A stretch of DNA of 64,000 nucleotides from Patescibacteria group bacterium. GTDB taxonomy: Bacteria; Patescibacteriota; Patescibacteriia; UBA1558; UBA10009. The stretch spans positions 16,390 to 80,389 of the forward strand of contig JAHISB010000018.1 in the NCBI GenBank assembly GCA_018818425.1, given 5' to 3'. Position numbers and translations under genes: made by a program. The notes under the pieces are model-generated. The model saw only the letters and a program-made list of their open reading frames with translations, did not search any database and had not been told where the DNA came from. Positions 6,315-38,977 of the stretch are shown in pieces. The first letter of the stretch is position 1. Each line of letters opens with the position of its first letter.

Positions 6315-6330
6315 AAAGGCCTTGCCTTAC

Positions 6331-11514: not shown

Positions 11515-11590
11515 AGCATGGGAGCATGGGAGCAAGTGTTCTAATGTTCTAATGTTCTAATGTTCCAGTGTTCCAATGCTCTAATGAAAA
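11515..11590. repeat. (ATGTTCTAATGTTC)-type tandem array upstream of ruvA
   Basis: gagcatgggagcatgggagcaagtgttctaatgttctaatgttctaatgttccagtgttccaatgctctaatg. Confidence 0.7.
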
Positions 11591-11594
11591 AAAT

Positions 11595-12179
11595 ATGATT
11601 AGTCACCTTACAGGCAAAATCATTCTCAAAAAACCAACATATATAATTCTTGAAGTCAACGGCGTTGGCTACCAGATTTTTTGCAACGAAAAAACTCTTA
11701 ACGGGCTAAAGGAAGGTGCCGAAGCTGTTATCCATACTCATCACCATGTTAAAGAAGATCTGCAGGAGCTTTACGGCTTTTTAAATTTACCCGAACTGGA
11801 ACTTTTTAAAAATGTCATCGGCATATCCGGCGTTGGGCCCAAAACAGGGCTGGCTGTTCTGGCTGTGGCTTCGGTGGAAGATATTATCCAGGCCATTCTT
11901 TCCGAAAATCCCGGGCTGCTGCGGACGGTTTCCGGCATCGGCACTAAAACAGCAGAACGTTTAGTGGTAGAACTTAAATCTAAAATCGGCTCGCTAGCCA
12001 AAGAAATTACCGGCAAAGACCTTTCGGCCGCCTCACCCAATGCCGATGTTATAGAAGCTTTAATAGGTCTTGGCTATTCCAGAAAAGAGGTAATGGAAGT
12101 AGCGCGGCAAGTGCCGAATGATATTACCGATGATTCGGAAAGGATTAAAGGAGCGTTAAAATTATTAGGGAAAAGATAA
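11595..12179 (+). CDS. ruvA: Holliday junction DNA helicase RuvA
   Basis: The N-terminus MISHLTGKI...LEVNGVGYQIF matches the RuvA OB-fold start. Two HhH motifs (GISGVGPKTGLAVL and VSGIGTKTAERL) and a C-terminal domain III. Confidence 0.9.
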   Translation: MISHLTGKIILKKPTYIILEVNGVGYQIFCNEKTLNGLKEGAEAVIHTHHHVKEDLQELYGFLNLPELELFKNVIGISGVGPKTGLAVLAVASVEDIIQAILSENPGLLRTVSGIGTKTAERLVVELKSKIGSLAKEITGKDLSAASPNADVIEALIGLGYSRKEVMEVARQVPNDITDDSERIKGALKLLGKR

Positions 12180-12272: not shown

Positions 12273-13298
12273 ATGGAAATAACTCTTTTAAATAAGCCAC
12301 GATTTGATGAATTTGCCGGCAATCAAAAATACAGTCAATTTTTACAGTCTTGGGACTGGGGCGATTTCCAAAAAAACGTCGGCCATAGAGTCTGGCGACT
12401 GGGCGTTGCTTTAGATAATCAGATTATTGCCTCGGCCCAAATTATTGAGCATCTTTTGCCTTTTAATAAAAGTTATCTTTACTGCCCTCGCGGTCCGGTA
12501 ATAGCAGAAAATTTATCTGACAAACAAAAACTCACGGCCTTAAAACTGATTCTAAGCAAAGCCCGCGACATTGCCATTTCAACTCCCCAAACCGAAGAAA
12601 TCTTCTTCCGCCTAGAGCCAACCCATCGTCTACAACCTACAACCTACCCACTACAACCTACACCCTACAACCTAAGAAAAACAAAGCCCATCCAGCCCGC
12701 CGATACTCTGATTTTAGACCTAACTTTGCCGAAAGAACAATTGCTGACAAACATGCGCCAAAAAACCAGATACAACATCCGCCTGGCCGAAAAACATGGA
12801 GTAACAATTAAAGAAGAGAGTGGCTTTTCCAAAGTCTGGCCATTTTTCGAACAAACTTCTAAAAGAGATAAATTCGGCCTTCATCCCAAAAAATACTATC
12901 AAAAAATGGTTGAGGATTCCGATTTAATAAGGATGTGGGCCGCAGATTATAAAGGAAAAATAGTTGCCGCTAATATTGTCAGTTATTTCGGCAATACCGC
13001 CACTTATGTTCACGGCGCTTCTGACTATCAGCAACGTTCAATGATGGCGCCGTTTCTTTTACAATGGGAAGTGATTAAAAACGCCCAGGAGCAGGGCTAT
13101 AAATATTATGACTTTCATGGAATTGCGCCAAACCATAACAAAAATCACCCTTGGCACGGCATCACTAGATTTAAAAAAGGCTTTGGCGGCCAAGTAATTC
13201 ATTATCCCGGAACTTTTGATTTTATTTATCAGCCATTGAGTTATAATATATATAAGGCCTTGCGAAAATTAAACCTTCTTATCAGAAAAATTTATTAA
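12273..13298 (+). CDS. FemAB-family aminoacyltransferase (peptidoglycan interpeptide bridge formation), with an in-frame (ACAACCTAC)n repeat insert
   Basis: SWDWGDFQ...LYCPRGPV and the C-terminal GFGG region resemble the FemABX family. The repeat at 12630..12675 encodes LQPTTYPLQPTPYNL. Confidence 0.65.
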   Translation: MEITLLNKPRFDEFAGNQKYSQFLQSWDWGDFQKNVGHRVWRLGVALDNQIIASAQIIEHLLPFNKSYLYCPRGPVIAENLSDKQKLTALKLILSKARDIAISTPQTEEIFFRLEPTHRLQPTTYPLQPTPYNLRKTKPIQPADTLILDLTLPKEQLLTNMRQKTRYNIRLAEKHGVTIKEESGFSKVWPFFEQTSKRDKFGLHPKKYYQKMVEDSDLIRMWAADYKGKIVAANIVSYFGNTATYVHGASDYQQRSMMAPFLLQWEVIKNAQEQGYKYYDFHGIAPNHNKNHPWHGITRFKKGFGGQVIHYPGTFDFIYQPLSYNIYKALRKLNLLIRKIY

Positions 13299-14763: not shown

Positions 14764-16080
14764 ATGAAAACTTTTGTAAAGAAACTTCTACCTCCTTTTA
14801 TTCTGGGCTGGTACCACCAAGTACTGGCATTTTTAGCTATGGTCATTTATGGTTTTCCTTCTAATAAATTGATTGTTATTGGCGTAACCGGCACCAACGG
14901 CAAATCAACGGTCGTCAATTTAATCGGCGAAATTTTAAAAATTTCGGGCCATCAAGTTGCCTGGACCGCCACCACCAACTTTTTTCTTGACGGCCAGGAG
15001 CGGCTTAACGACCAAAAAATGACCATGCCGGGCAGATTCAAAACTCAAAAATTCTTAGCAGATAGCGTAAGGGCCGGCTGTAAATATGCCATAATCGAAA
15101 CTTCATCGGAGGGCATTAAACAATACCGGCATTGGGGCATTAATTATGATCTGGCGGTTTTTACTAACCTGACTCCCGAACATATCGAAGCCCACGGCAG
15201 TTTTGAAAACTATAAAAAAGCCAAAGGCAGACTCTTTAAGCATCTGACAAAATTCCCAAAGAAAAAAATCAACAATCAGCTGATTGATAAAACGATTATA
15301 GTAAATACTGACGATCAATATGCCGATTACTTTTTAAATTTTCCGGCTGACAAAAAATTGGCTTTCTCAATTAAAAAAAAATCCGACTTTAGGGCAACCA
15401 GCATTAAGCTTGATTCTAACGGCACTTCTTTCACCCTACAACCTACCCCCTACAACCTACCCCCTACAACCTACAAAACTAATTTACTGGGGAAAGTTAA
15501 CATCTACAACTGCCTCTCGGCTATTGCCGTTGCCAAAGCTCTTGGAATCGACAGCGATAAAATCCAGCAAGCCTTACTAAAATATAAAGGCATGCCCGGA
15601 CGTTTTGAATTTATTGATAAGGGACAAAAATTCAAAGTGATGATTGACTATGCGCCCGAGCCCGAGTCAATGAAAAAATTGTATGAAACTTTGCAATTAT
15701 TTAAGTTTAATAAAATAATTCATGTTTTAGGTTCCTGCGGCGGCGGCCGAGATAAGTCCAGAAGACCTATTTTAGGAAAATTAGCCGCAGAAAACGCTGA
15801 CATTGTGATAGTCACTAACGAAGATCCTTACGACGAAGACCCGCAACAAATTATTGATCAAGTAGCGGCCGGCGCCGAAGCTAATGGTAAAATTCTTAAT
15901 CAAAACTTATTTAAAATATTGGATAGACGCGAAGCAATTAAAAAAGCTTTGTCATTGGCTAATGATAATGATTTAGTTTTGCTGACCGGCAAGGGTTGCG
16001 AGCAGCATATTTGCGTTACTCGCGGGAAGAAAATTAAGTGGGATGATCGAGAGGTTGTTAGAGGGTTGTTGAAAATATAA
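14764..16080 (+). CDS. Mur ligase family protein (MurE-like), with an N-terminal TM segment and an in-frame (ACAACCTAC)n repeat
   Basis: P-loop VIGVTGTNGKST, the Mur ligase middle and C-terminal motifs (TGKGCEQH...WDDRE). The repeat at 15433..15477 encodes LQPTPYNLPPTTY. Confidence 0.7.
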   Translation: MKTFVKKLLPPFILGWYHQVLAFLAMVIYGFPSNKLIVIGVTGTNGKSTVVNLIGEILKISGHQVAWTATTNFFLDGQERLNDQKMTMPGRFKTQKFLADSVRAGCKYAIIETSSEGIKQYRHWGINYDLAVFTNLTPEHIEAHGSFENYKKAKGRLFKHLTKFPKKKINNQLIDKTIIVNTDDQYADYFLNFPADKKLAFSIKKKSDFRATSIKLDSNGTSFTLQPTPYNLPPTTYKTNLLGKVNIYNCLSAIAVAKALGIDSDKIQQALLKYKGMPGRFEFIDKGQKFKVMIDYAPEPESMKKLYETLQLFKFNKIIHVLGSCGGGRDKSRRPILGKLAAENADIVIVTNEDPYDEDPQQIIDQVAAGAEANGKILNQNLFKILDRREAIKKALSLANDNDLVLLTGKGCEQHICVTRGKKIKWDDREVVRGLLKI

Positions 16081-16272
16081 AAGGCGCCTGTACCGCCTCT
16101 CGCGAGAAGCGCTGTGGATAACTTGACGATAAACACCAATTTTGGGGCTAATTATAGGCCTGTTTTTATTTTCTTGACGAAATAAAATGAATTTATCTAA
16201 ATTAACGATTGTGGATAATTCAAATATTTTTGGCTAAAATTAGCAATATTTAAAATATTTAGCTAAAATCTC

Positions 16273-19843: not shown

Positions 19844-19904
19844 AAATAATTAAATAGCTTAACTACTCACTACATACTACATACTACATACTACTCACTA
19901 AAAT

Positions 19905-22900
19905 ATGCCAACTCCTTCATCAACTAAAACAACTTTTATTGCCGAGGGCGCTGCCCAGCTTCAGGATTTTGATGCTATTAGGTTAAAGCTGGCTTCGCCG
20001 GAAAAAATCCATAACTGGTCTTATGGCGAAGTTTTAAAACCAGAAACCATTAATTATCGCACCCAAAAACCGGAAAAAGACGGGCTATTCTGCGAAAAAA
20101 TCTTCGGCCCCTCTAAGGACTGGGAATGCTATTGCGGTAAATATAAAAGAATCCGCTACAAGGGCATTATCTGCGATAAATGCGGGGTGGAAGTTACCCG
20201 TTCCATAGTCAGAAGAGAAAGAATGGGCCATATCGATCTGGCCGCGCCGGTTTCTCATATCTGGTTTTTAAGGGGCATCCCTTCTAAAATCGGCTTGGTT
20301 TTGAATCTTTCTATTCAGGAAATAGAAAAGGTTATTTATTTTGCCTCCTTTATTATTACCGAAGTTGATGAAGAGTTAAAAAAGCAAACTTACGATCAGA
20401 TTCAGGGCGAGCTAAAAAGTAAAAAGAAAGCTATTGAAAAAGAGTTTGTTCAAAAACTTAATCAGCTTAACGGCCAAAGAGAGAAAATTTCGGCCAGTCA
20501 ATTCCCTAAAGAAATGGAGCTACTGGAAAAAACTAAAGAGGAAAAAAATAAAACTTTAGAAGAAGCTTTTGATCAGGCCAAAAAAGAGCTTAAAGATTTA
20601 AAGCCCCTAAAAATAATTTCGGAAAACGAATACTATAATCTGTCCCGCCGCTACGGCCATCTTTTTGAAGCCGGCATTGGCGCCGAGGCGATTAGAAAGC
20701 TTTTGACTAAAGTTGATTTAGAAAAATTGGCTCAAGGATTAGACGGACAAACAGCCATAGCCATCCCTTCTAAAAAGAAAAAGCTGTCGCGGCAAACCAG
20801 ACTGATCAAAAGCCTGCTCAAAAATAAAATCAGGCCGGAATGGATGATTCTGACTGCCGTGCCGGTTATTCCTCCTGATCTGCGGCCAATGGTCCAGCTG
20901 GACGGCGGGCGCTTTGCCACCTCCGATTTAAACGATCTTTACCGTAGAATCATTAACCGAAATAACCGCCTTAAAAAATTAAAGGAGCTTAACGCACCGG
21001 AAGTTATCCAGCGCAACGAAAAAAGGATGCTCCAAGAAGCGGTTGATGCCTTAATCGATAATGGCGCCCGTCACGGCAAAACCGTAACGGCCTCTACCGG
21101 CCAAAAAAGAATGCTTAAAAGCATTGCCGATATCCTTAAAGGCAAGCAGGGCCGCTTTAGACAAAATTTATTAGGCAAAAGAATCGACTACTCCGGCCGC
21201 AGTGTTATTGTTATCGGCCCTAAGCTGGAAATGAGCCAGTGCGGCCTGCCTAAAACCATGGCTTTAGAGCTCTTTAGGCCTTTTGTAATTTCTAAATTAA
21301 TTCAAAGGGAGATTGTTCATAATGTCAGAAGCGCTAACCGCTATATTGAACAGGATCATCCGGAAATTTGGGATATTTTAGAAGAAGTTACTAAAAAAAG
21401 CCACGTCCTTTTAAACCGCGCTCCCACCCTGCATCGCCTGGGCATTCAGGCCTTTCAGCCGGTTTTAATCGAAGGCAAGGCCATCCAGGTCCATCCCATG
21501 GTCTGCAAGGCGTTTAATGCCGATTTCGACGGCGACCAGATGGCTGTGCATGTGCCCATTACCGAAGAGGCTAAAAAGGAAGCGGCCGAAATAATGCTGT
21601 CGGTTAATAATCTTTTAAAGCCGGCAACCGGCGAACCGGTAACCACGCCGGACCAGGATATTGTCTGGGGCTGTTACTATTTAACTTTTATTAATCCCAA
21701 GCAGGACCAGCCCGTTAAATATCTTTCTTCAGTAGAGGAAGGCAAAATAGCCCAGAGCCTTAAAAAAATCAGACTGCACGACCGGATAGCTTTAAAAATA
21801 AAGGGCAATTTAACCGAAACCACCGTTGGCCGCTTAATTTTTAACGAAATCATTCCGCCGGAAATTGGCTTTATCAACGAAGAGATGAACGCCAAAACTT
21901 TAAAAAAATTAGTGGCCGACATTCTTAACAGCTGCGGCCGCAAAGCCACCACTAAATTTTTGGATCAAATCAAAAAACTGGGCTACGAAACCATTACCTA
22001 CTCCGGCCTTTCCTGGGGCATCGACGACATACCTTCCGTTAAAGAAAAGGGTCAGTTGATAAAAGAAGGCGAAAAGAAAATCGAACAGATTCAGGAACAG
22101 TACGAGCAGGGATTATTAACTAACAAGGAGCGCTACGTTAAAGTAGTGGAAACCTGGAACGAGATCAAGGATAGAATTTATAAAATCAGCCAGGAATCTT
22201 TTGATACCTCCAGCTCGCTTTATTCGATTATTAATTCCGGAGCCAGGGGTTCCTGGGCGCAGATGATTCAAATTATGGGCATGAAGGGCCTAGTTATCAA
22301 TCCCGCCGGTGAAATTATGGAACTGCCGGTTAAAGCTAATTTCCAGGAAGGCTTGGATGTTTTAGAATATTTTATTTCTACCCACGGCACCAGAAAAGGG
22401 CTGTCCGATACCGCCCTAAGAACTGCCAACGCCGGCTACCTGACCAGGCGCTTAGTGGATGTGTCCCAGGATTTAGTAATTATGGAAGAAGACTGCGGGG
22501 ATCAAGAAGGGCTTGTTTTAACCAAAAAAGACAGGGAGGAAATGGGAGAAGATGTCGGCACCCTGATTTTCGGCCGCGTTCTTTTAAAAAACATTGTTGA
22601 TCCTAAAACTAAAAAAACTCTGATCAAGGCCGGCAAGCTGGTTGACCAAAATGATGTTAATAAAATAAAAAATATAGATATCCAGGAAATACATCTCCGC
22701 TCCTTAATTTCCTGCCAATCGACCAGGGGGGTCTGCCAAAAATGCTATGGTTACGATTTAGGCTACAATCAACCGGTTCAGAAAGGGGTGGCCGTGGGCA
22801 TTATAGCGGCTCAAAGCATCGGCGAACCGGGCACCCAGCTGACCATGAGAACTTTTCATACCGGCGGCGTGGCCGGCCAGGATATTACCCAGGGTTTGCC

Positions 22901-23768
22901 AAGAGTCGAAGAAATTTTTGAAGCCCGATCGCCTAAAAAATCGGCGATTCTGGCAGAGGTTGGCGGCCAAGTTATTATCGATAAAGATCAGCCCGGCGGC
23001 TCCAGAACACAGAGAAAAATCCAAATCCGCTATCAGGGCAAGGTTAAAAACAGTATTGCGGTTAATGAAGATTATAATGTTATAGTTAAAGACGGGCAAA
23101 ACGTTGAAAATAAAGATATCCTGATGAAGCACAAAGAGGATAAAAAAAATATTGTGGCTAATTGCGCCGGTTATATACGCCTGGCTGACAATTTGATCCA
23201 GATAATCTCCCCCGAGGAAACCGAGGAAGAAGTCATTATCCCGCCCGGTTATGTTTTATGGGTAAAAGACGGCGATGAAGTTAAAACGGGCGATTCTTTA
23301 ACCGAAGGCAGTCTGGATTTACAGAAACTTTATAAATACCAGGGCAAACAGGCCGTTCAAAAATATATTATTAAAGAAATTCTCTATATTTATTCCTCCC
23401 AGGGCCAGAAATTAAACATTAAACATATCGAATTAATTATCAGGCAGATGTTTTCCAAAATTTATATACAAAATTCAGGCGATACTGACCTGCTTCCCGG
23501 CGAGATTGTCACCAGCGCCCAATTCTCCGAAGAAAATGCCAAAGTTAAAAAAGAAAAAGGCCAGTTAGCTACAGGCACCACTCTTCTTTTGGGCATAACT
23601 AAGTCCTCCCTGGCCACCGACAGCTTTTTATCGGCCGCTTCGTTCCAGGAAACTGCCCGGGTTTTAATTGACGCGGCCATCAACGGCAAAGTAGACACTC
23701 TAAGGGGCCTTAAAGAAAATGTAATTATCGGCCGGCTGATTCCGGCCGGCACCGGCTTTAGAGAATAA
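19905..23768 (+). CDS. rpoC: DNA-directed RNA polymerase subunit beta'
   Basis: 1287 aa with a zinc-binding CxxC..CxxC N-terminus, NADFDGDQMAVH and the trigger loop region. Confidence 0.97.
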   Translation: MPTPSSTKTTFIAEGAAQLQDFDAIRLKLASPEKIHNWSYGEVLKPETINYRTQKPEKDGLFCEKIFGPSKDWECYCGKYKRIRYKGIICDKCGVEVTRSIVRRERMGHIDLAAPVSHIWFLRGIPSKIGLVLNLSIQEIEKVIYFASFIITEVDEELKKQTYDQIQGELKSKKKAIEKEFVQKLNQLNGQREKISASQFPKEMELLEKTKEEKNKTLEEAFDQAKKELKDLKPLKIISENEYYNLSRRYGHLFEAGIGAEAIRKLLTKVDLEKLAQGLDGQTAIAIPSKKKKLSRQTRLIKSLLKNKIRPEWMILTAVPVIPPDLRPMVQLDGGRFATSDLNDLYRRIINRNNRLKKLKELNAPEVIQRNEKRMLQEAVDALIDNGARHGKTVTASTGQKRMLKSIADILKGKQGRFRQNLLGKRIDYSGRSVIVIGPKLEMSQCGLPKTMALELFRPFVISKLIQREIVHNVRSANRYIEQDHPEIWDILEEVTKKSHVLLNRAPTLHRLGIQAFQPVLIEGKAIQVHPMVCKAFNADFDGDQMAVHVPITEEAKKEAAEIMLSVNNLLKPATGEPVTTPDQDIVWGCYYLTFINPKQDQPVKYLSSVEEGKIAQSLKKIRLHDRIALKIKGNLTETTVGRLIFNEIIPPEIGFINEEMNAKTLKKLVADILNSCGRKATTKFLDQIKKLGYETITYSGLSWGIDDIPSVKEKGQLIKEGEKKIEQIQEQYEQGLLTNKERYVKVVETWNEIKDRIYKISQESFDTSSSLYSIINSGARGSWAQMIQIMGMKGLVINPAGEIMELPVKANFQEGLDVLEYFISTHGTRKGLSDTALRTANAGYLTRRLVDVSQDLVIMEEDCGDQEGLVLTKKDREEMGEDVGTLIFGRVLLKNIVDPKTKKTLIKAGKLVDQNDVNKIKNIDIQEIHLRSLISCQSTRGVCQKCYGYDLGYNQPVQKGVAVGIIAAQSIGEPGTQLTMRTFHTGGVAGQDITQGLPRVEEIFEARSPKKSAILAEVGGQVIIDKDQPGGSRTQRKIQIRYQGKVKNSIAVNEDYNVIVKDGQNVENKDILMKHKEDKKNIVANCAGYIRLADNLIQIISPEETEEEVIIPPGYVLWVKDGDEVKTGDSLTEGSLDLQKLYKYQGKQAVQKYIIKEILYIYSSQGQKLNIKHIELIIRQMFSKIYIQNSGDTDLLPGEIVTSAQFSEENAKVKKEKGQLATGTTLLLGITKSSLATDSFLSAASFQETARVLIDAAINGKVDTLRGLKENVIIGRLIPAGTGFRE

Positions 23769-23794
23769 TTATCTCAACTTTTTGAATATCAAAA

Positions 23795-23826
23795 ACTCCC
23801 CGGTTTGATTTGGGGAGTTTTTTGAT
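23795..23826 (+). terminator. rho-independent terminator after rpoC
   Basis: aaactccccggtttgatttggggagtttttt: a 6-bp GC stem followed by a T-run. Confidence 0.6.
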
Positions 23827-23860
23827 TTTCTAGACTATTTGATTATAAGCGCCGTTGTCC

Positions 23861-23995
23861 GCGGATAACGCTGAGACGCGCTGACCATTAGCTGATATCC
23901 GCCGAGGCGCGCTGATACAAAATTTATCAGCGAATATCCGCCCGCTTCGACTCCGAAGCGAGGCGAGCGCGCCTCGGCGTGTCTTGGCGGTTATC
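23861..23995. repeat. 135-bp GC-rich structured repeat, copy A (direct repeat of 25462..25597)
   Basis: gcggataacgctgagacgcgctgaccattagctgatatccgccgaggcgcgctgatac...ggcggttatc. It differs from copy B at only a few positions. Confidence 0.85.
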
Positions 23996-24060
23996 AGCGA
24001 TACACGATATACGATACCCACCTCCGCTAAAGCTACGGCGAGGCAGGCACGATTTGCGAT

Positions 24061-25401
24061 TTATTCCCACATTAAAGCCGCTTGTTCATATAGAGGCAAA
24101 ACTTTCTCCAGTAATATAATTAACGGTTCTTTGCTTAAAGTTAAAGGAGGGTTAGGCCCAAGCGCTTCCCTATCCTCATCAAAAATTTTAGCAATTTCCA
24201 GATATTTTTGAGCTAATTGATAGTTGCCTTTTTCTTGAAAATAATAATACAGCGCCACCGCGCTTGGCGTATCATAATCATAAGTATAACCCCGGGAAAT
24301 GTTAAAATTGTTATCAGAATTTTTTAAATACTCAATAGTCTTTTTGATATTGGCCGGAGCTTCAACCGCATTCTTTTTATTTATAACATAAAGCTCTGCT
24401 TCTATTTTTGGCTGGCCGGTTTTTTCAAACCAGAACATTTGGTGATTATCGCTCCAAGAGCCGATAAATTCTTCGTAGGCTAAAAACCAGGTGTCTTCTA
24501 TTAAATTCGCTCCCAAGAAATCTTTAGGAAATCTTTCGTGGGAAACTTCAGGCGAACCAAGCCAGACCCCTTTATTGTTATAACCTGCCAAGGCAATAAA
24601 ACTGTCGTTCACATGAACAATGGGAATAAGACCGGCATTTAACAATTTTTTGGCAAAAAGAAACTCCTCATCAACATCTTTAAAGTAAATTAAATTTTCA
24701 AACTTAATACCGGGCACCACATTTTCCGGCGGATGGATCGGGCTGGTTGAACCGCGGTAAACTTCGTAGCCCAAATTCTTAAAAGCATAAAAATTATTCA
24801 TGCCCGGGCCGTAGCGTTCGGAACTGTTTCTGCCCGCGGTAAAAAGAATGGGCTGACCATAAAGAACATATTCATAAAGGTCAATCTCCGGCTCCAGATA
24901 ATGGATAATCCCCGAGCCGGTTTGCAGCCAGCAAAAGCCGCCGGTCGTAATTAAATAACTGGGTACCGGATATTTGACTTCGTCCAAAACCTGTTCCGGT
25001 AGTAGAGTTTTAAAGCTGGCAGCCAAATGCGCCTGATCCTTTTGATATTCCAGCTCATACTTAAAAACCCCTTTAGCCGCCAAAAGAGCTAAAGCCAGAA
25101 AAACAATCAAACCCGGAATAACAATATTCTTAAATTTAAGGCCTTTTTCTGCCTGAACTTTTCTGGCTTTGAAAAAAACATCTGCTAACGCATAAAGATA
25201 AATAAAAACCAGAGCGCCTAAAACCAAATAAGAGCGGGGATTATTAAAAACCAAAAAAGTACTGCTTTTGTAAAAAACAACAAACCATAAAAAGGAGATG
25301 GTTATAATAAAAACAGCCGCATTAGAATAACTGCCGATATACAAATGGCCAAGGCCGGGATAGAAAATGGTTAGCAACAGGGCTAGTTTTTTATTCTTCA
25401 T
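24061..25401 (-). CDS. hypothetical membrane-anchored protein (TM2-like N-terminus, large C-terminal domain)
   Basis: 446-aa ORF. N-terminus GLGHLYIG plus 3-4 TM helices. The C-terminal soluble domain is unassigned. Confidence 0.5.
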   Translation of the reverse strand: MKNKKLALLLTIFYPGLGHLYIGSYSNAAVFIITISFLWFVVFYKSSTFLVFNNPRSYLVLGALVFIYLYALADVFFKARKVQAEKGLKFKNIVIPGLIVFLALALLAAKGVFKYELEYQKDQAHLAASFKTLLPEQVLDEVKYPVPSYLITTGGFCWLQTGSGIIHYLEPEIDLYEYVLYGQPILFTAGRNSSERYGPGMNNFYAFKNLGYEVYRGSTSPIHPPENVVPGIKFENLIYFKDVDEEFLFAKKLLNAGLIPIVHVNDSFIALAGYNNKGVWLGSPEVSHERFPKDFLGANLIEDTWFLAYEEFIGSWSDNHQMFWFEKTGQPKIEAELYVINKKNAVEAPANIKKTIEYLKNSDNNFNISRGYTYDYDTPSAVALYYYFQEKGNYQLAQKYLEIAKIFDEDREALGPNPPLTLSKEPLIILLEKVLPLYEQAALMWE

Positions 25402-25461
25402 ACTATAATTTTAGCATCTTTAGGTAAAACATTAAACTCTTTGTCTGAAACGCCGATGCAT

Positions 25462-25597
25462 GCGGATAACGCTGAGACGCGCTGACCATTAGCTGATATC
25501 CGCCGAGACGCGCTGATACAAAATTTATCAGCGAATATCCGCCCGCTTCGACGAGTAAAGCGAGGCGAGCGCGCCTCGGCGTGTCTTGGCGGTTATC
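25462..25597. repeat. 135-bp GC-rich structured repeat, copy B
   Basis: Near-identical to 23861..23995. It lies just upstream of the start of the gene at 24061..25401 on the minus strand. Confidence 0.85.
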
Positions 25598-25762
25598 TGC
25601 AAACTCTGGCAAACTTATGGGCCTCCGAAAACTGTTTGGACAGGATTTCCTAAAAAAAACTTGCCGGATGATGTAAAGGCAAAAGTTAAAACTTCAGCCA
25701 TAAAAACCGCTGGCATCTACGGCCGATAAAAAACCCGCGAATACAGAGTAACAGGTCTTATT

Positions 25763-26776
25763 TTATTTACGGCTACCCCGACCCGCTAACTGCCCGCAAG
25801 CCGCCATAATATCTTGCCCAAAACTATTCCGCTGGGTTACCTTAACTCTATTGTCTTCTAAAACTTTTTTAAAGGCCATAATTTGTTTTTTATCCGAAGC
25901 TTTAAATTTTCCGGTCGGATTATAAGGAATTAAATTAACTACAAACAAATGATTGTTTATAATTTGGCTCAATTGTTTGGCCATAAATAAACTGTCGTTA
26001 ACGCCCTTAATCAGCAAATATTCAAACATCACCTGCCGGCCGGTTCTTTTTATATAATCATTGACTGTTGCCATAACTTTTTCTAAAGAATACTTTTTAT
26101 TTATGGGCATCAGTTTAGACCTAAGCTCATTGGTCGGCGCATTTAAAGAAATAGCCAAATTTATCTGAAGTTTTTCCTTAGCCAATTTTTGAATACCCGG
26201 AATTACGCCGCAAGTGGAAATAGAAAAATGCCTGGCGCCTAAATTAAAACCTTCGGAATCGTTTAAAATTTTTATGGCCCAAATAACGTTATCATAGTTT
26301 AAAAACGGCTCACCCATGCCCATAAAAATAATGTTGGTGATTTTATGGTTAGAAACATTTAAACTTTTTAAGTAACGGGCCATAACCAGCGCCTGATTGA
26401 TTATTTCGTCCGGCTCCAAATCCCGCTTATACCCCATTTGTCCGGTGGCGCAAAACCGGCAACTAATCTGGCAACCGACTTGCGATGAAACGCACAGGCT
26501 GTTCCGCCCGTCTGAATTTTTTAATAAAACTGTTTCTATTTTTTGGCCATCGGCTAAAGTAATTAAAGCTTTAACGGCCTTATTGTTTTTGGAAATAAAG
26601 AATTCCGCTTTAACTTCCAGCGGATAATCTTTGTTTAAACTTTCCCTGAGTTCTAAAGGAAAGTTGATGGCCTTAGACCAGTTATCGATTAAATCTTGGT
26701 AAACTGCTCTTTGGGCTTGTTTTAATCGATACTTAACCTGACCGATAAAATGTTGGTGTAAATTGTGTAAAGGCAT
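25763..26776 (-). CDS. rlmN: 23S rRNA/tRNA adenine C2-methyltransferase RlmN (radical SAM)
   Basis: CRFCATGQMG radical-SAM cluster, plus the C-terminal conserved Cys (MAACGQLA). Confidence 0.85.
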   Translation of the reverse strand: MPLHNLHQHFIGQVKYRLKQAQRAVYQDLIDNWSKAINFPLELRESLNKDYPLEVKAEFFISKNNKAVKALITLADGQKIETVLLKNSDGRNSLCVSSQVGCQISCRFCATGQMGYKRDLEPDEIINQALVMARYLKSLNVSNHKITNIIFMGMGEPFLNYDNVIWAIKILNDSEGFNLGARHFSISTCGVIPGIQKLAKEKLQINLAISLNAPTNELRSKLMPINKKYSLEKVMATVNDYIKRTGRQVMFEYLLIKGVNDSLFMAKQLSQIINNHLFVVNLIPYNPTGKFKASDKKQIMAFKKVLEDNRVKVTQRNSFGQDIMAACGQLAGRGSRK

Positions 26777-26896: not shown

Positions 26897-27409
26897 TTAT
26901 TTTATTTTAGCATAAAGATAATCATCGTAATATTTGCCATTTTTTTCAGCGTGCTTTTTTAACAAACCCTCCTTTTTAAAGCCCGATTTAAATAGGACTT
27001 TTTGCGAGGCCTTGTTAAAAGTAAACACATAAGCAAAAATTCTTTTTAATTTTAATCTATTAAAACCATAATTAACAACTAATCTAACGGCCCGAGTCAT
27101 AATCCCTTGGCCCCAGTATTTTTCCGCCAGCCAATAGCCGATTTCCGCCTGGTGGCCCTCGATTCTGACCAAGCCAATGCCGCCGGCTACTTCGCTGTTA
27201 ATGTCGATAGCCCATTTGAATCCACTTTTACGGTTCCTGGCCTTCATACTTCTTTTAATCCAGCTTCTGGCGCCATTGATAGTGTAGGGGTATTTGATTC
27301 TTAAAGTATTACGATAAATTTTCTTGTTATTAATATTCTTAAACAAAGAAAAAGCGTCCTCTTTTCTAAAAGGCCTTAAAGTAAATTCTTTAGTTTTTAT
27401 TATTGGCAT
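26897..27409 (-). CDS. GNAT family N-acetyltransferase (RimJ/RimL-like)
   Basis: 170 aa. FTLRPFRKEDA at the start and a WGQG acetyl-CoA binding-like segment. Confidence 0.7.
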   Translation of the reverse strand: MPIIKTKEFTLRPFRKEDAFSLFKNINNKKIYRNTLRIKYPYTINGARSWIKRSMKARNRKSGFKWAIDINSEVAGGIGLVRIEGHQAEIGYWLAEKYWGQGIMTRAVRLVVNYGFNRLKLKRIFAYVFTFNKASQKVLFKSGFKKEGLLKKHAEKNGKYYDDYLYAKIK

Positions 27410-27498
27410 ATATTTATTTTAGCAGGTTTTGGGGAAATAAAATCGAGCTCAGGCCAGCTCAGCTTTGCCTATGGCCGGCGCGATTTGCGATCGGTTCT

Positions 27499-27798
27499 TT
27501 AATTAAATACAACTTTTAATTCTTTACCAAAGGCCTTGGCTAATTTATCCAGCATTTCCACAGTAAAATTCTGCTGTCCTGTTTCCATTCTGGCAATATT
27601 ACTCTGCGTAGTGCCGATTTTTTTGGCAACTTCCGACTGGGTCATTCCCATTTTCTTGCGCAACCTAATTAGACTGAGAGAAATCTCTAGCTGTTTGCCG
27701 TAATAATCGAACAACTTTTTATATTCAGGATTTTTTAAGTCCTCCCTTAATATATCATCAAAATCCGTTAGCTTTATTTTTTTTGATTTAGAGATCAT
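27499..27798 (-). CDS. HTH XRE-family antitoxin (HigA-like)
   Basis: MTQSEVAKKIGTTQSNIARMETG helix-turn-helix. Overlaps the upstream toxin gene by 11 nt. Confidence 0.7.
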   Translation of the reverse strand: MISKSKKIKLTDFDDILREDLKNPEYKKLFDYYGKQLEISLSLIRLRKKMGMTQSEVAKKIGTTQSNIARMETGQQNFTVEMLDKLAKAFGKELKVVFN

Positions 27799-28159
27799 AT
27801 TTATGTAGATTGTTCATAAAGTCATAATAATTATTTAAAGCTTTTCTAATTTCTTTCCTTGGCGCCTTTTGGGATTTTTTAAAGAAGGCGTGTAATAAAA
27901 TTATATTTTTATTAATAAAAGAAAAATAAAATACTCTATGCCGGTTTCGCCCAAAATCAACTTTCAACTCTCGAATCTTGCCTGTTATATGCCTTGAAAG
28001 CGGTTCATCTAGATAGCCTTTACTTTCTTTTAAATACTCTAAATATTTTTCTATTTTTAACCTGTCTTTAATATTTATTTTTAATAGATAATCTAAAACC
28101 GGCTCTTTTTCGTTTCGGCTATTCTTATAGAATTTTACCTTATATTCACTATATATCAT
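27788..28159 (-). CDS. RelE/ParE-superfamily toxin of the HigB / phage Gp49-like type
   Basis: 123 aa. KESKGYLDEPLSRHITGKIRELKV...ILLHAFFKKSQKAPRKEI resembles Gp49/HigB. The toxin sits upstream of the antitoxin, as in higBA operons. Confidence 0.55.
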   Translation of the reverse strand: MIYSEYKVKFYKNSRNEKEPVLDYLLKINIKDRLKIEKYLEYLKESKGYLDEPLSRHITGKIRELKVDFGRNRHRVFYFSFINKNIILLHAFFKKSQKAPRKEIRKALNNYYDFMNNLHKYDL

Positions 28160-28320
28160 ATGTGATATGTTGTCAAATTAATAAAATAAAAAAGCCATTC
28201 CCGAGACTGGCTCGGTAAATGACCCTTTAGCCCTAAATCCATAGTGGTTCAGGGTTTAGCTGTATCTTATATAACCTGAAAATAATGTCAAATTAGAAAA
28301 GCCCCCCCCCTGTCTAAGAC

Positions 28321-28395
28321 GCTGATATGCGCGGATATGCGCTGACCATTAGCTGATGCCGACTCGCCTCGCTTCGACTCTGCAAAGCGAGGAGG
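28321..28395. repeat. partial degenerate copy of the 135-bp GC-rich repeat family
   Basis: Shares the 19-mer gcgctgaccattagctgat and the cgcttcgactc..aagcgagg block with the copies at 23861 and 25462. Confidence 0.6.
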
Positions 28396-28401
28396 GTTAT
28401 T

Positions 28402-28818
28402 TTATTTTAGCAAATATTGGACTAAATACTTTTTAATACAGCCGGGCAACAGTTTAAAAGTTGGCAATTCACTAATTTCCAGCCAGATAATGGAAATATG
28501 GCCTTCCTGGCATTTAATTGATTTGGGCTTTTTAGTTTTTAAATCAACTTGGTACAAAAAATTTATTTCGTGATGATAAACATTATTATGAGTAAAGGAA
28601 TTTTCAAAAAATTCAAGGAATTTTAAATTATTAATTTCTGCTCCCAGCTCTTCCCTGATTTCCCTTTTAAGGGCTTGCTTTATTCCCTCGCCCATCTCCA
28701 AATGCCCGCCCGGCAAATAATAAATCGGCGGATGGTCATTAGATTTACAAACTAAAATTTTATCATCATCAATAATAATAGCTCTTAATATTATTTCAAT
28801 GTGATTAGGGCGGGGCAT
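28402..28818 (-). CDS. NUDIX hydrolase
   Basis: Nudix box GGHLEMGEGIKQALKREIREELG. Confidence 0.8.
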   Translation of the reverse strand: MPRPNHIEIILRAIIIDDDKILVCKSNDHPPIYYLPGGHLEMGEGIKQALKREIREELGAEINNLKFLEFFENSFTHNNVYHHEINFLYQVDLKTKKPKSIKCQEGHISIIWLEISELPTFKLLPGCIKKYLVQYLLK

Positions 28819-30087: not shown

Positions 30088-30967
30088 TTGTAAGAATACC
30101 TCGCGTTGTTAGCACTTTTTAGGTATAGTGTTAACAATATGACTATACATAAATGGACTAAACTTACCCCCGTCAAAAGACGGGAAATAGCTGATAAATA
30201 CTTTAAACAAGACATCAGAATAGCAACCTTAGCCAGAGATTACCAAACAAGTAGAAATACTATCTACAATGTCATCAATCGGGCAAGGATGAATGATTTC
30301 AGTATTCATAAAAGCATCAATAAGCGTTACAGGTGTTTGGAGTACGGCCTCAAACGATTATCAAAGATTGAAGCCGCATTTGAGAAAAAGCTTAAAAACA
30401 AAGCCCAACGCTACAACAAGAGCTATCCCGGGGAAATGATGCATTCCGACAACACTCAACTGCCCATGCTCAAGGGAGAAACTACTCAAGACAAGCCGGA
30501 AAAGCTCTATGTGGCCATTGATGACTTTTCCAGAGAGCTGTACGCCACCATATTGCCGGATAAAACCCAGTTTTCCTCCGCAACGTTCTTACTGCAAGTG
30601 CTTGAGGAGTGCCCTTACACTATAGAAACATGGTACACTGATAATGGCACTGAATACAAAGGTAATCCCAAAGAACATGTTTTTATGCAACTGTGTCAGA
30701 AGCATGACATTAAACAGTCGTTTACTAGGGTAAAAACTCCAAAGACCAATGGCAAGGCCGAGCGGGTTATTAGGACTCTTTTCCAGATGTGGCATTCAAG
30801 GACCAAGTTTAAAAGTAACGTGCATCGAAAGCAAGAATTGATCAGATTTGTGAATTACTACAATACTGTTAAACCCCATAAAGGTATTGATAATCTTACT
30901 CCTTTTGAAAAATTAACTAACTATTTTTATCCTAAAGAACTGTGAACAACGCTGTTACTTCTTACAA
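30088..30967 (+). mobile_element. IS481-family-like insertion sequence with imperfect terminal inverted repeats of about 26 bp, flanked by a TTTAT(T) target-site duplication
   Basis: IRL TGTAAGAATACCTCGCGTTGTT pairs with the reverse complement of the IRR at 30941..30967, TGTAAGAAGTAACAGCGTTGTT. The flanking tttatt repeats at 30083..30088 and 30968..30973. One transposase ORF inside. Confidence 0.7.
30139..30945 (+). CDS. DDE transposase (N-terminal HTH + integrase core, IS481-like)
   Basis: HSDNTQLP...YVAIDDFSRELYA...WYTDNGTEY...KTNGKAERVIRT, which is the rve DDE core. Start taken at MTIHKW. Confidence 0.85.
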   Translation: MTIHKWTKLTPVKRREIADKYFKQDIRIATLARDYQTSRNTIYNVINRARMNDFSIHKSINKRYRCLEYGLKRLSKIEAAFEKKLKNKAQRYNKSYPGEMMHSDNTQLPMLKGETTQDKPEKLYVAIDDFSRELYATILPDKTQFSSATFLLQVLEECPYTIETWYTDNGTEYKGNPKEHVFMQLCQKHDIKQSFTRVKTPKTNGKAERVIRTLFQMWHSRTKFKSNVHRKQELIRFVNYYNTVKPHKGIDNLTPFEKLTNYFYPKEL

Positions 30968-30978: not shown

Positions 30979-31863
30979 CTAGCGGGAATGGGTAATGCCA
31001 ATTTTCCAAACATTTCTTTCTAAAAAGGCTTCGATTGTTTGCCGGCCGGCTTTATTTATTAGGTTTGAGTGTGAAAATTTATTATTTTTTGCGTAATCAA
31101 CAAGGGTCATAATTTCTTTATCTTCTAAATACGCCAATCGTTTATGATAGCTGTTAGTAAGCGCTCTTCCGACTATTTCTTCCATAATTAAAGTTCTGCC
31201 TTTTTTATCAAATTCTTTAAACGCTTCATAATATTTCTGCCTATCAATAAATTTTATATTTATAGGAACAAACCCTTCCCGTATTAATAAATAATTATTA
31301 ATAACGCGCCCAATGCGGCCGTTGCCGTCAACAAATGGATGAATATGTTCAAAAGTAAGATGTAATTTTGCTATACGATTGATAATATTTTCATGGCTAG
31401 CGGCATTATACTCGGTCAGCATTTTTTCTAAACGATACGCCACTTCTTTTGAATTGGGGGCAATGTAATTTCCGACTCTAACATATTCACCATTTTTTCT
31501 GAACCTGCCGGCAATATCATCACGAATATTTGAAATTAACATTTTGTGCAGTAATAAAATAACCTCAAGAGTGAGTTCTTGTTCCTTAGCTTTTTTACCT
31601 ATATATAACACAACTCGCGCCAAATTTTTTGCTTCAAAAAATTCTCGTTCAATAATAAATCTATCTAAGTCAATTTGTAAAAGTATTTTTTCGGTTTCTT
31701 CAAGAGTAAGAGTACTATTTTCTATAGCATTAGAGTTATATACTTGTTCGGCAACTTCGGCTTCCAAGATAAGCTTAATTAGCGCGTCCTTGCCTGTAGA
31801 CGCCTTATAGTATCTTTCCCGAAGAGAATCTATTTTATTGTAAACATTAAGTATTTTTACCAT
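30979..31863 (-). CDS. Fic family protein
   Basis: Fic motif HPFVDGNGRIGR. Confidence 0.85.
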   Translation of the reverse strand: MVKILNVYNKIDSLRERYYKASTGKDALIKLILEAEVAEQVYNSNAIENSTLTLEETEKILLQIDLDRFIIEREFFEAKNLARVVLYIGKKAKEQELTLEVILLLHKMLISNIRDDIAGRFRKNGEYVRVGNYIAPNSKEVAYRLEKMLTEYNAASHENIINRIAKLHLTFEHIHPFVDGNGRIGRVINNYLLIREGFVPINIKFIDRQKYYEAFKEFDKKGRTLIMEEIVGRALTNSYHKRLAYLEDKEIMTLVDYAKNNKFSHSNLINKAGRQTIEAFLERNVWKIGITHSR

Positions 31864-34614: not shown

Positions 34615-35345
34615 CGACTATGTCCAGCTTTATCCACAAAAAACTTTCTTCAGACAAAAGTGTGGCGGAAATAATTAAAGAAGAGAGGCAGAAAAGAAAT
34701 TTAAGCTTATCGGAGGTTTCTTTAAAAACCCAAATTGCTTTAGATTATTTAAATAAACTGGAGCAGGGCCGTTATCATCAGCTGCCGGGCGATATTTATA
34801 TTAAGCAGTTTGTAAAAAAACTGGCTAAATATTTTAATTTTTCGGAAAAAAATCTTTTGGCCATTTATCAGAAAGAGAAGATCAACCAGTTAAACATTTT
34901 CCAGTCAACTCCCCTAAAGTTATCTAAAAGGCCTCAAAAAAATCTGTTATCGTTTTTAACCCCTCGGTTAATCAGACTTTCCCTGGTCAGCTTAATTATT
35001 TTAGGCCTCTTTGGTTATCTGGCTCTGGAGATTACCAATATCTTTACCCCGCCCTTGCTGGAAATTGAATCGCCCGCCGCGCAGACTATTACGGTCAAGC
35101 CGGCTATTACCATTAAAGGCAAAACCATGCCCGAGGCCCTGATTTTAATCAACCAGCAGGAAATTTTAACCAAGCCCGACGGCAGTTTTTCCCAGGATGT
35201 TAATTTAAATATGGGGCTCAATCTTTTTGAAATTTCGGCCTCCAAAAAGCATAGCAAAGAAAATATTATCACTATTTCCATTCTCCGCCAGCCGGCCACC
35301 ACCTCCGACTTAAATATGTTTGACAGATCTGTTTCTTTTCAATAA
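34602..35345 (+). CDS. HTH-domain membrane protein, RodZ-like
   Basis: N-terminal XRE-type HTH (LSLSEVSLKTQIALDYLNKLEQG), one TM helix, and a C-terminal extracytoplasmic domain. The start may lie at the downstream Met, because the 5' end overlaps a mini-element copy. Confidence 0.55.
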   Translation: MVIFTTMSSFIHKKLSSDKSVAEIIKEERQKRNLSLSEVSLKTQIALDYLNKLEQGRYHQLPGDIYIKQFVKKLAKYFNFSEKNLLAIYQKEKINQLNIFQSTPLKLSKRPQKNLLSFLTPRLIRLSLVSLIILGLFGYLALEITNIFTPPLLEIESPAAQTITVKPAITIKGKTMPEALILINQQEILTKPDGSFSQDVNLNMGLNLFEISASKKHSKENIITISILRQPATTSDLNMFDRSVSFQ

Positions 35346-35603
35346 GATAGATAAGCGCTGAAAGGTTGAATAATCATTCATCATCCTATATCCGCGCTTA
35401 TCAGCGCACCTCTCCTGCCATGCTCCGCATAGCGGGGCTGGCAGCGCACCTCGGCGAATATCAGTGATTTTTTATTTTTGAATTTGTTATTTATTTGGAA
35501 TTTGCCGACAGGCCTCGAACGCAGTCCTCGAGCGAAGTCGAGAGGGCGAAGTCGAGAGGAAATTTATTAATTAAGGGTCATTTAACTATTAATGACTATT
35601 TGT

Positions 35604-36650: not shown

Positions 36651-36814
36651 TGATTAATGACTGATGACCAATGATTTCGGCCAAAGGCCGACCAGCCTTT
36701 GGCTGGGATGACTGATGATTATATATTAAATTGACTAGCCGGGGGTTTAGTCGAGCTGAGCTCGATAGCCCTCGGCTTTTTGAATTACTTAACTATAAAT
36801 GCTAAAATAGGGAT

Positions 36815-36902
36815 ACTATAACATTAGAACATTAGAGCATAGGAGTAATTATTTATGTTCTAATGTTCTCATGCTCCCATGTTCTAATGTTCTCATGTTC
36901 TT
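36815..36902. repeat. the same ATGTTCTAATGTTC-type array in inverted pairing upstream of the flippase gene
   Basis: aacattagaacattagagcatagg...tatgttctaatgttctcatgctcccatgttctaatgttctcatgttc. Confidence 0.7.
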
Positions 36903-38315
36903 ATGACTTTGACTAAAACCATCGCTAAAAACACTCTCTGGCAAATAATCGGTAAAATTATCGGCACTATTTTGGGAGTTGTTACCATTGCTCTGCTGAC
37001 CCGTTATTTGGGCAAAGAGGGCTTTGGCCATTACACCACGGCTTTGGCCTTTATGCAGTTCTTTGGCGTGCTGGTTGATATGGGGCTTTATTTAATTTGT
37101 TTAAGGGAGATTTCAGCCCGGCCGGAAAAAGAAAGCTATATTACCAGCAACATTTTTACCTTGCGCTTTTTTTCGGCTCTGATTTTTTTGGGCGGCGGTA
37201 CTCTGCTGATTTTTGTTTTCCCCTACCCGCCGGTGGTTAAGTGGTCGGCTGCCATTGTTTCCGGCTCATTTTTATTTATGTCTTTGGTCCAAACTCTGAC
37301 TACGGTTTTTCAAAAACATCTTAAAATGGGACAGGTGGCGCTGGCCGAAGTAGTTGGACGGACCGGTTTTTTAATTGTGATCTTCCTCTTTATTTTCTAT
37401 AAAGGCAACTTGCCGGCTTTGATGTTGGGCAATGTGGCCAATGCTATTATTTATTTTGTCATTCTGTGGGTCCTAATTAAAAAGTATGTAAATATAAAAT
37501 GGTCATTCGACTTTGTCTATTGGAAAACAGTAATCGCCAAGGCCTGGCCCATTGCCCTGGGCGTGGTTTTCAACCTGGTTTATTTTAGGGCCGATACCAT
37601 TATTCTTTCACTCTATAAACCGGCCGGCGATGTTGGCCTTTACGGCGCGCCTTATAAAATTCTGGAGATAATCACCACTTTCCCCCATATGTTTATGGGC
37701 TTGGTGATGCCCATTTTAACGGCTGCCTGGATCAGCCGAAATATGGAAAAATTCAAAAGCATTATGCAAAAAACTTTTGATTTTTTTATTATTTTGATTA
37801 TGCCGATGGTTCTGGGAACAATTCCTTTGGCTGATAAAATTATGGTTTTAATCTCCGGCAACGAATTTGCTCCGTCAGGAAAAGTTCTGCCGGCTCTGAT
37901 GCTGGCTACCGGCATGATATTTTTAGGCACGCTGTTTACCTACACTTTGGTGATTCTGGAAAAACAAAAAACCATGCTGAAATATTTTGCCCTGGCCGCC
38001 GTGCTGGCCTTAATCGGCTACTTTATTTTTATTCCCAAATATTCCTACTTTGGCGCGGCCTGGGTCACTGTGATTATTGAGGGCTTTATCACTTTGACTG
38101 CCCTGATGCTGGCTTATAAATTTTCTAAAATTAAGCTCACTGGTAAAACTTTTATAAAAAGCTTGATTGCTTCGGTAATTATGACGGGCGCGTTATATCT
38201 GCTTTTAGATTTAAATATTATCCTGTTGCTGATTATTAGCATCTTGATTTATGGAGCGGTGATGATTATAATTAAAGGGGTTGACAAAAAGATAATTAGT
38301 GATATTATAAGGTGA
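36903..38315 (+). CDS. polysaccharide biosynthesis protein / Wzx-like flippase (MOP superfamily)
   Basis: 470 aa with about 12-14 TM helices. The N-terminus TIAKNTLWQIIGKIIGTILGVVTIALLTRYLG is typical of the Wzx/PST family. Confidence 0.7.
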   Translation: MTLTKTIAKNTLWQIIGKIIGTILGVVTIALLTRYLGKEGFGHYTTALAFMQFFGVLVDMGLYLICLREISARPEKESYITSNIFTLRFFSALIFLGGGTLLIFVFPYPPVVKWSAAIVSGSFLFMSLVQTLTTVFQKHLKMGQVALAEVVGRTGFLIVIFLFIFYKGNLPALMLGNVANAIIYFVILWVLIKKYVNIKWSFDFVYWKTVIAKAWPIALGVVFNLVYFRADTIILSLYKPAGDVGLYGAPYKILEIITTFPHMFMGLVMPILTAAWISRNMEKFKSIMQKTFDFFIILIMPMVLGTIPLADKIMVLISGNEFAPSGKVLPALMLATGMIFLGTLFTYTLVILEKQKTMLKYFALAAVLALIGYFIFIPKYSYFGAAWVTVIIEGFITLTALMLAYKFSKIKLTGKTFIKSLIASVIMTGALYLLLDLNIILLLIISILIYGAVMIIIKGVDKKIISDIIR

Positions 38316-38783: not shown

Positions 38784-38977
38784 CACTTGATGCTATACTG
38801 TAATAGACCGCTCCTGGATTTGAGCGGTTTTTTATCTCGCCTCTCGCCCTTCGGCTGGCTCAGGGCGCCTTGAATGAAATTGAAAGGCGACTTCGCCTCT
38901 CGACTTCGCTCGAGGCGGATTTATCTTGCCCAACAGGATGAATTGATAAAATTAGTGGGTCAAGGTAAAATACAACT

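Follow-up and report, generated by a model that had tools for sequence, protein, structure and literature searches.

What is a pair of nearly identical, GC-rich repeats doing on either side of a single gene? The question is raised by a locus of a Patescibacteria group bacterium (GenBank assembly GCA_018818425.1, contig JAHISB010000018.1), in which copies A and B of one repeat lie in the two intergenic spaces around a minus-strand open reading frame (ORF; 24061-25401) that encodes a 446-amino-acid protein. The DNA examined amounted to 71 kb, comprising a 64-kb stretch of the contig (positions 16,390 to 80,389 of the forward strand), referred to here as the window, and 7.2 kb of extra sequence from the same contig. 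Coordinates are those of the window, and the features are collected in Table 1. We hold, with moderate confidence, that A and B belong to a small, low-copy family of non-coding palindromic intergenic repeats, similar in kind to ERIC, Correia and BIME elements, that was spread or homogenized locally. The bracketing of one gene is most likely a by-product of this local spread and not a gene-specific device.

A first-pass annotation of the window had described two ~135-bp copies of near-identical sequence in one orientation, GC-rich (~60%) within AT-rich DNA and situated in the 5′ and 3′ intergenic spaces of the gene, between rpoC and rlmN. All of this held. A and B were recovered as direct repeats by a repeat finder (families D8 and D13) and by a blastn self-match (95.6% identity over 136 nt, E = 2e-58), the limits of the high-identity cores were refined to 138 and 139 nt, respectively, and the ORF coordinates agreed. 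The GC content of the cores is 0.59 (A) and 0.58 (B), compared with 0.40 for the window. Base-by-base alignment of the cores showed six substitutions and one indel, with five of the seven differences falling in one small hairpin (23952-23955 / 25553-25557). The left edge of the core (23861/25462) is sharp; across it identity steps from only 61% over the preceding ~23 nt (23838-23860 vs. 25440-25461) to 99%, and to the right of the core similarity is gone. The period from A to B is 1601-1602 nt. Near-identity of this degree (95%), together with the sharp edge, would be consistent with a recent local duplication or with gene conversion between neighbors.

The truncated copy that had been placed at 28321..28395, here termed T, was likewise confirmed, both by nhmmer (28320-28366, E = 3e-4) and by a covariance model run with filters off (28308-28413, 22.5 bits, E = 6e-4). 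T possesses neither the central hairpin nor the right arm of the full copies. A degenerate copy proposed near 35380..35470 had to be dropped; nhmmer aligned 24 nt of the opposite strand with E = 0.1, the covariance model returned 8.5 and 6.1 bits (E = 2-8), and the region has in common with the repeat only short words, such as TATCAGCG and CCTCGGCG. No further copy was found in the extra 7.2 kb, and the two full copies and one truncated copy are therefore all confined to 4.6 kb of the 71 kb. The first-pass annotation had named, as speaking against its proposals, a finding of dozens of copies at unrelated gene ends; nothing of the kind appeared in these 71 kb.

Each full copy is a nested palindrome of ~140-150 nt, in which a left arm and an imperfectly inverse right arm enclose two short hairpins. 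The consensus fold has four parts, namely an outer stem drawn from both ends, an 11-bp GC stem, and the two inner hairpins. In A as in B, the first and last 26 nt match at 20 of 26 positions with one gap, providing the terminal inverted repeats expected of a miniature inverted-repeat transposable element (MITE). GCNGA words recurring every 9-11 nt make up the left arm. A chain of six such words did not occur in any of 5000 shuffled versions of copy A, where the longest chain had two, and on this strand of the whole window chains of at least three words were found only in A (six), B (seven), and T (four). Given the phased arm, its inverse partner and the inner stems, the element can be described as two decamer-word arrays in inverted arrangement, with hairpins inserted.

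The internal complementarity reported at first pass was borne out by folding, as copy A had a minimum free energy of -81.7 kcal/mol on the plus strand (z = -7.5) and -75.2 kcal/mol on the minus strand (z = -4.0) relative to shuffles, with similar results for copy B. A check of folding and covariation, which the same annotation had proposed, was thus only half rewarded: the fold is strong beyond shuffles, whereas covariation from two copies is essentially nil. The outermost predicted pair shows a compensatory change, being C-G in A and U-A in B. Since the two full copies offer this one compensatory pair and two one-sided changes that disagree on strand, covariation cannot choose among the readings considered below.

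The bracketed gene itself gives little reason to regard the repeats as its own. Its product, on record as hypothetical protein KJ840_01885, has 24 homologs, all in Patescibacteria, with a maximum identity of 57%. A structure model (pLDDT 82) consists of a membrane anchor and a BtrH/AziU-like fold (Foldseek E = 1e-4 to AziU3/U2), and this modeled fold has no link to DNA mobility. The GC content of the gene (0.388) and its codon usage are both typical of the window, and a foreign origin was rejected on this ordinary composition. No flanking repeats were found at homologs in four other contexts (L004, L005/L006, and L073), where the neighbors differ and a tRNA is often upstream. Because homologs elsewhere in Patescibacteria are without flanking repeats, the repeat is not tied to the 446-amino-acid gene. 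As a separate observation, the motif GCRCGATTTGCGAT directly follows the stop codons of two minus-strand genes, the 446-amino-acid gene (24046-24060) and a helix-turn-helix (HTH) gene (27484-27498), and a related motif, GATTGCGATGCGATGCGA, occurs upstream of the homolog in L004.

The gene order is Metallophos, NUDIX, [T], HigB-like, HigA-like, GNAT, rlmN, [B], 446-amino-acid gene, [A]. As the repeats are plus-oriented among minus-strand genes, each of A, B, and T lies 3′ of an ORF transcribed towards it; in the case of T this is the NUDIX gene, which is unrelated to the 446-amino-acid gene. Between B and T lie 2.7 kb with four genes, and several intergenic gaps there are without a copy. On the other side, the intrinsic terminator of the convergent rpoC ends ~25 nt before A, placing A outside the rpoC transcript. 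With all three copies 3′ of an ORF and the strand bearing the TATCAGCG word always the sense strand, the element is most likely transcribed as a 3′-untranslated or intercistronic segment. Its constant 3′ position, constant orientation, and stable fold suggest that it may act as a stem-loop concerned with transcript ends, stability, or insulation, a role of the kind proposed for REP-type elements (PMC3733652). Once transcribed, so long a stem-loop would halt transcripts or protect their 3′ ends, and at this locus it could separate neighboring transcription units, i.e., those of rlmN, the 446-amino-acid gene, and the convergent rpoC. A plausible extended -10 promoter (TGCTAAAAT), recognized by inspection just before the ATG of the bracketed gene, has B on its upstream side; a simple scan did not flag a promoter there.

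Relatives of the repeat are rare. The 19-mer GCGCTGACCATTAGCTGAT, common to A, B, and T, had no match in 185,579 species genomes and a single match in JGI metagenomes, on a contig (L003) that resembles those of the Candidate Phyla Radiation (CPR). Its genes are unrelated to those of the window, and its intergenic DNA is word-rich in the same style. The match belongs to a half-copy (4497-4576) that is 81-84% identical to A/B (E = 4.5e-15) and 97% identical to T over 38 nt. It has co-directional ORFs on both sides, and its orientation relative to them matches that of the window copies. Searches of viral contigs with two sub-patterns gave chance matches only, with unrelated flanks, and blastn against plasmids and phages gave no match to the repeat. 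Translated open frames of the repeat, searched against protein databases for spurious ORFs arising from other copies, returned nothing relevant. The decayed copy 2.7 kb away and the half-copy in another CPR-like organism would make the repeat family older than the A/B pair. Two further GC-rich intergenic hairpin motifs, CTGTCATTGCGAG...CTCGCGATGACA and GCTGAAGCTTTAGCGRAAGCGGG, are common to the window and L003, and this sharing suggests a common pool of structured intergenic elements in these CPR lineages.

A wider search was made in species genomes with GCTGATANNCGCNGANNNGCGCTGA, a degenerate three-word pattern that matches every copy. It returned 40 sites (L032-L071), compared with ~4-8 expected by chance according to our own estimate, mostly in Verrucomicrobiota, Chloroflexota, Acidobacteriota, and Planctomycetota, with none in Patescibacteria. 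At 15 of the 40 sites an inverted partner exceeded the 99th percentile of controls, and a phased inverse word chain followed downstream at 18 (background, 6%). As a rule these are intergenic nested palindromes of ~60-130 nt with 3+3 decamer words (GCNGATnnnn three times, a loop, and the inverse three times); like A and B they have phased GCNGATnnnn arms with an inverted partner array and belong to no Rfam family, whereas A and B have six or seven words. The likeness is one of words and architecture, not demonstrable homology. One Caldilineaceae metagenome-assembled genome (JAHBVF01) carries a 126-nt MITE-like element in five copies, with clear outer inverted repeats and a GCTGAT-word hairpin core; one of the five is short by exactly one 10-nt word. 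In the Akkermansiaceae, two species have a word hairpin at what is apparently the same locus (L047 and L052).

A MITE-like or palindromic repeat family, one of the possibilities raised at first pass, is the best fit to these data, in view of the terminal inverted repeats, the length of ~140 nt, the sharp left edge, the decayed third copy, and the half-copy elsewhere. The Caldilineaceae element, whose hairpin core is built of similar GCTGAT words, adds to this. What did not materialize within the 71 kb was a target-site duplication, a matching transposase, or a set of dispersed copies, and a number of observations weigh against the family interpretation or against its RNA-level role. No direct repeat was found in the flanks of A and B, whether the short or the long boundary was used. 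The copies are few and clustered, an arrangement with a chance of ~0.01 by our own arithmetic if they were placed randomly among ~58 intergenic gaps, and with three copies in 4.6 kb, A, B, and T are not scattered as the members of an active MITE or REP family would be. The Pfam-scanned ORFs of the window (392-49064 plus 54870-55964) include no RAYT (Y1) transposase, tyrosine recombinase, or reverse transcriptase, and no Nop-domain protein. The only transposase among them, an rve ORF (30106-30945), was rejected as a partner, as its ends are unrelated to the repeat and not GCGGATAAC-like. Of the two informative substitutions, 23907 G>A leaves a G·U pair only on the minus strand and 23996 A>T creates a G·U pair only on the plus strand, so that they point to opposite strands. 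No U-tract follows the main stem, which is therefore not a canonical intrinsic terminator; a terminator scan flagged only a weak internal hairpin with a run of four U. Finally, an RNA hairpin has no need of words so strictly phased at 10 nt, a hint that something else is involved.

One alternative is that the repeats are the boundaries of a cassette, circular or linear DNA with one repeat and the 446-amino-acid gene having recombined into a resident copy between rpoC and rlmN, through either Campbell-type homologous or attC-like site-specific recombination. The direct orientation of the copies would follow from this, as would the presence between them of exactly one gene with its own putative promoter; the clustering of the copies, the accessory genes of the neighborhood (GNAT, HigBA-like pair, NUDIX, Fic, rve transposase), and the differing contexts of the gene family in other genomes are in line with it. 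There is also a likeness to the attC sites of integrons and of clusters of attC sites lacking integron-integrases (CALIN), in that A, B, and T are structured imperfect palindromes (~140 nt here; ~60-140 nt for attC) lying in one orientation 3′ of co-directional, accessory-type ORFs, with ...ATAAC / GTTAT... ends that supply the AAC...GTT of such sites. In other features that were compared, A, B, and T depart from attC. In gene orientation the ends read ..TGATAAC / GTTATCC.., so that only AAC and GTT fit the R″ (RYYYAAC) and R′ (GTTRRRY) boxes, and the predicted fold has long, near-continuous outer stems and a three-way interior where attC has R/L stems, an unpaired central spacer, and extrahelical bases. 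The housekeeping gene rlmN lies inside the would-be array, B and T are parted by four genes over 2.7 kb with gaps that lack a site, and neither an integron integrase nor any tyrosine recombinase is present in the scanned ORFs. The ordinary composition of the gene does not favor a cassette either. In A, B, and T the weaker similarity extends leftward beyond the core, which suggests that the copies are long-standing residents and were not freshly inserted. We consider a cassette unlikely. Quite unlikely, too, is an array of protein-binding sites acting at the DNA level, in which GCNGA(T) words one helical turn apart and their inverted partners would be cooperative sites, akin to iterons, ribbon-helix-helix operators, or centromeres (e.g., the 10-bp repeats of ParR/parC-type systems), that organize or regulate the locus. 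The phasing at 9-11 nt is far beyond chance, and in the window chains of three or more words are limited to A, B, and T; T and the L003 half-copy retain the word array and not the palindrome, the 19-mer within it being identical in all four. When arms from the other phyla were compared by hand, CGCNGAT cores were kept while spacers were often not complementary, suggesting that it is the words and not the pairing that are maintained. Against this, no candidate binding protein is linked to the element, operators would be unexpected on the 3′ side of genes, unrelated tandem words also make up many other intergenic spaces in this genome, and tandem duplication by slippage explains the phasing equally well, a process of which the Caldilineaceae copy differing by one 10-nt unit may be an example.

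A broader proposal joins these two ideas, and we regard it as very doubtful: A and B would be the CPR representative of an undescribed cross-phylum class of inverted, phased GCNGAT decamer arrays whose words are recognized by a conserved DNA-binding, RNA-binding, or recombination protein, and which here would delimit an excisable or insertable one-gene unit, i.e., an integron-like cassette without an integron integrase. A structured RNA that controls the 446-amino-acid gene in cis, as a leader, 3′ element, or riboswitch-like device, could account for the stable multi-branch predicted fold and for the both-sides change at its outermost pair. The first-pass annotation had entertained a structured RNA flanking the gene, and this proposal fared poorly. 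The element is found both 5′ and 3′ of the gene and again 3′ of the unrelated NUDIX gene, homologs in four other contexts do without it, B appears from inspection to be upstream of the likely promoter and not in a leader, and covariation is essentially absent. Assignment to a riboswitch or any other Rfam family was rejected for want of a match at the gathering threshold; the window had zero Rfam matches, and the best sub-threshold one reached 23 bits (E = 0.46), short of its gathering score of 47.9. Such gene-specific control is in our view highly improbable. Least credible of all is a chimeric or duplicated join in the contig. The source is indeed a metagenome assembly (ENA ERZ27247128), in which the window belongs to a contig of 104.4 kb, but the copies differ at seven positions and have different flanks, and NCBI, JGI, ENA, and Logan sources all contain the same protein. 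In addition, the gene is present on an independent Logan unitig (SRR6514274), each end of which breaks off within a repeat copy and retains part of it. Such breaks are expected of a k=31 graph at a two-copy repeat, and the arrangement is therefore not an artifact of a single assembler.

Table 1. Coordinates of the repeat copies, their parts, and other features of the window.
Feature	Position	Strand	Description
Repeat copy A	23848..23998	+	High-identity core 23861-23998 (138 nt); 23848-23860 is a more diverged leading word
Repeat copy B	25449..25600	+	High-identity core 25462-25600 (139 nt); 25449-25461 is the leading word
Relative T, truncated/decayed	28311..28395	+	Four phased GCNGA words including the 19-mer GCGCTGACCATTAGCTGAT, then CGCTTCGAC...AAGCG hairpin
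Left-arm array, copy A	23861..23917	+	Six GCNGA words at 23861, 23870, 23880, 23891, 23901, 23911 (spacings 9, 10, 11, 10, 10)
Left-arm array, copy B	25452..25518	+	Seven GCNGA words, 9-11 nt spacing
Central hairpin, copy A	23911..23931		GCTGATA / 7-nt loop CAAAATT / TATCAGC; same hairpin in B at 25512-25532
Second inner hairpin	23943..23960 (B: 25544-25562)		CGCTTCG-ACTC-CGAAGCG; holds five of the seven A/B core differences
11-bp GC stem	23902..23977		CCGAGGCGCGC (23902-12) pairs with GCGCGCCTCGG (23967-77); encloses both inner hairpins
Bracketed gene, 446 aa	24061..25401	-	N-terminal membrane helical region and BtrH/AziU-like (C39-like) domain; hypothetical protein
rpoC	19905-23768	+	Flanks on the A side; convergent with the bracketed gene
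Canonical intrinsic terminator of rpoC	23791..23822	+	Directly before copy A
rlmN, radical-SAM	25763..26776	-	B lies 3′ of rlmN and 5′ of the presumed promoter of the bracketed gene
Accessory-type genes	27499-28159, 26897-27409, 28402-28818, 30979-31863, 40569-41627	- (all)	Second Fic at 40.6 kb
Word-rich intergenic spaces	11521-11603, 36807-36914, 12619-12679, 15418-15492, 19859-19905, 4699-4848, 23999-24020, 25600-25616		
Hairpin motifs common to window and L003	Window 6308-6460, 41786-41809; L003 2641-2837, 9254-9277		

The surroundings of the repeats have several features of their own. Accessory-type genes cluster between rpoC and ftsK and include a HigB-like Gp49 with an HTH antitoxin, GNAT, NUDIX, and Fic. 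The rve ORF (plus strand) is an rve/rve_3 integrase-core transposase gene that shares 10 nt with the end of the Metallophos ORF and has a Fic gene after it; no clear terminal inverted repeats were found. Synteny of rpoC and rlmN is lost in the nearest RlmN relatives (74-77% amino acid identity) and in the one from Komeilibacteria (64%). Many intergenic spaces consist of short tandem words, often with an inverted partner, which looks to be general to the intergenic DNA of this genome. Examples are TGTTCTAATG-type 8-mers, CTACAACCTACCCC 14-mers, ACTACAT repeats that run up to the ATG of rpoC, and a palindrome, rich in AT, whose arms are 59 nt long. Words also follow A and B immediately on the right, with CGATACA three times and GCAAACnnnn twice. 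GCGAAGTCGAGAG-type words occur upstream of recA (35515-35565) and in reverse complement ~3.4 kb downstream (~38885-38930), an inverted pair that encloses recA and two polysaccharide or hypothetical genes. Further along, the regions 48159-54848 and 58023-63833 hold an array of paralogs with a type IV secretion system (T4SS) pilin domain (repeat families D1 and D3) and three tandem membrane-protein paralogs of ~540 amino acids with a 1616-nt period and a GC content of 0.28-0.33 (families D4-D6).

Patescibacteria genomes are tiny and repeat-poor and, to our knowledge, neither the ending of their transcripts nor the movement of their accessory genes is well understood. Structured, word-built palindromes that occur at gene ends and cluster near toxin-antitoxin, GNAT, NUDIX, Fic, and transposase genes may be relevant to both, in that such elements could mark transcript-end or insulator sites or serve as recombination substrates. 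The phased GCNGAT-word hairpins, common in several other phyla and absent from Rfam, could prove more broadly interesting than the bracketed gene. Overall this is a modest finding, unless the phased-word class has a dedicated protein partner or the 1.6-kb unit proves to be mobile.

On comparison with known systems, several classes were rejected. The template/variable pair of a diversity-generating retroelement was rejected on the grounds that the differences between A and B include an indel and an A in either copy, both copies are intergenic, and no reverse transcriptase is present in the scanned ORFs. TIGR (tandem interspaced guide RNA) arrays have regular ~36-nt units with box C/D-like motifs beside a Nop-domain Tas gene (PMC12045711); a TIGR-Tas array was rejected, as the period here is 10 nt, only two units are present 1.6 kb apart, and no Nop-domain ORF is among those scanned. 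A replication origin or DnaA-box cluster was also rejected, the words of the repeat merely resembling TGTGGATAA and the GC skew being uninformative. Perfect copies of this DnaA-box 9-mer do occur elsewhere, four in the window (16113-16121, 16210-16218, 34630-34638 on the minus strand, and 49505-49513) against 0.41 expected; two of them lie in the AT-rich gap that precedes rpoB, separated by 97 nt, and the GC skew shows no sign of an origin.

REP-type elements come closer. They lie mainly downstream of coding regions and act as RNA hairpins, with a proposed role in transcript ends or stability, and REP, BIME, and REPIN elements are recognized by palindromic units of 20-40 nt with a GTAG or CGTC tag at one end and by the RAYT transposases that mobilize them (PMC3733652). 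A and B are likewise GC-rich extragenic palindromes downstream of ORFs, with a multi-hairpin mosaic in one orientation to the upstream gene. Unlike those elements, their units are not 20-40-nt hairpins, no RAYT gene accompanies them in the scanned ORFs, and they are not high-copy in 71 kb. A tagged REP was rejected, as the element has no GTAG/CTAC and its lone CGTC (minus strand) is not at a hairpin end.

ERIC, the Correia/NEMIS elements of Neisseria, and the RUP elements of Streptococcus pneumoniae are MITE-like imperfect palindromes of 100-155 bp that occupy intergenic DNA. A and B have no sequence similarity to these families, which are lineage-specific, and differ from them in having no TA or other target duplication, very few, clustered copies, and a 10-nt-phased arm. 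They are alike in their size of ~140 nt, long imperfect palindrome, terminal inverted repeats, and strictly intergenic location, as well as in lying in or near transcribed 3′ and intercistronic regions with a long hairpin that could affect mRNA ends or stability. Taken as a whole, the element is only mildly unusual: its general kind is familiar, and it is the internal architecture that stands out.

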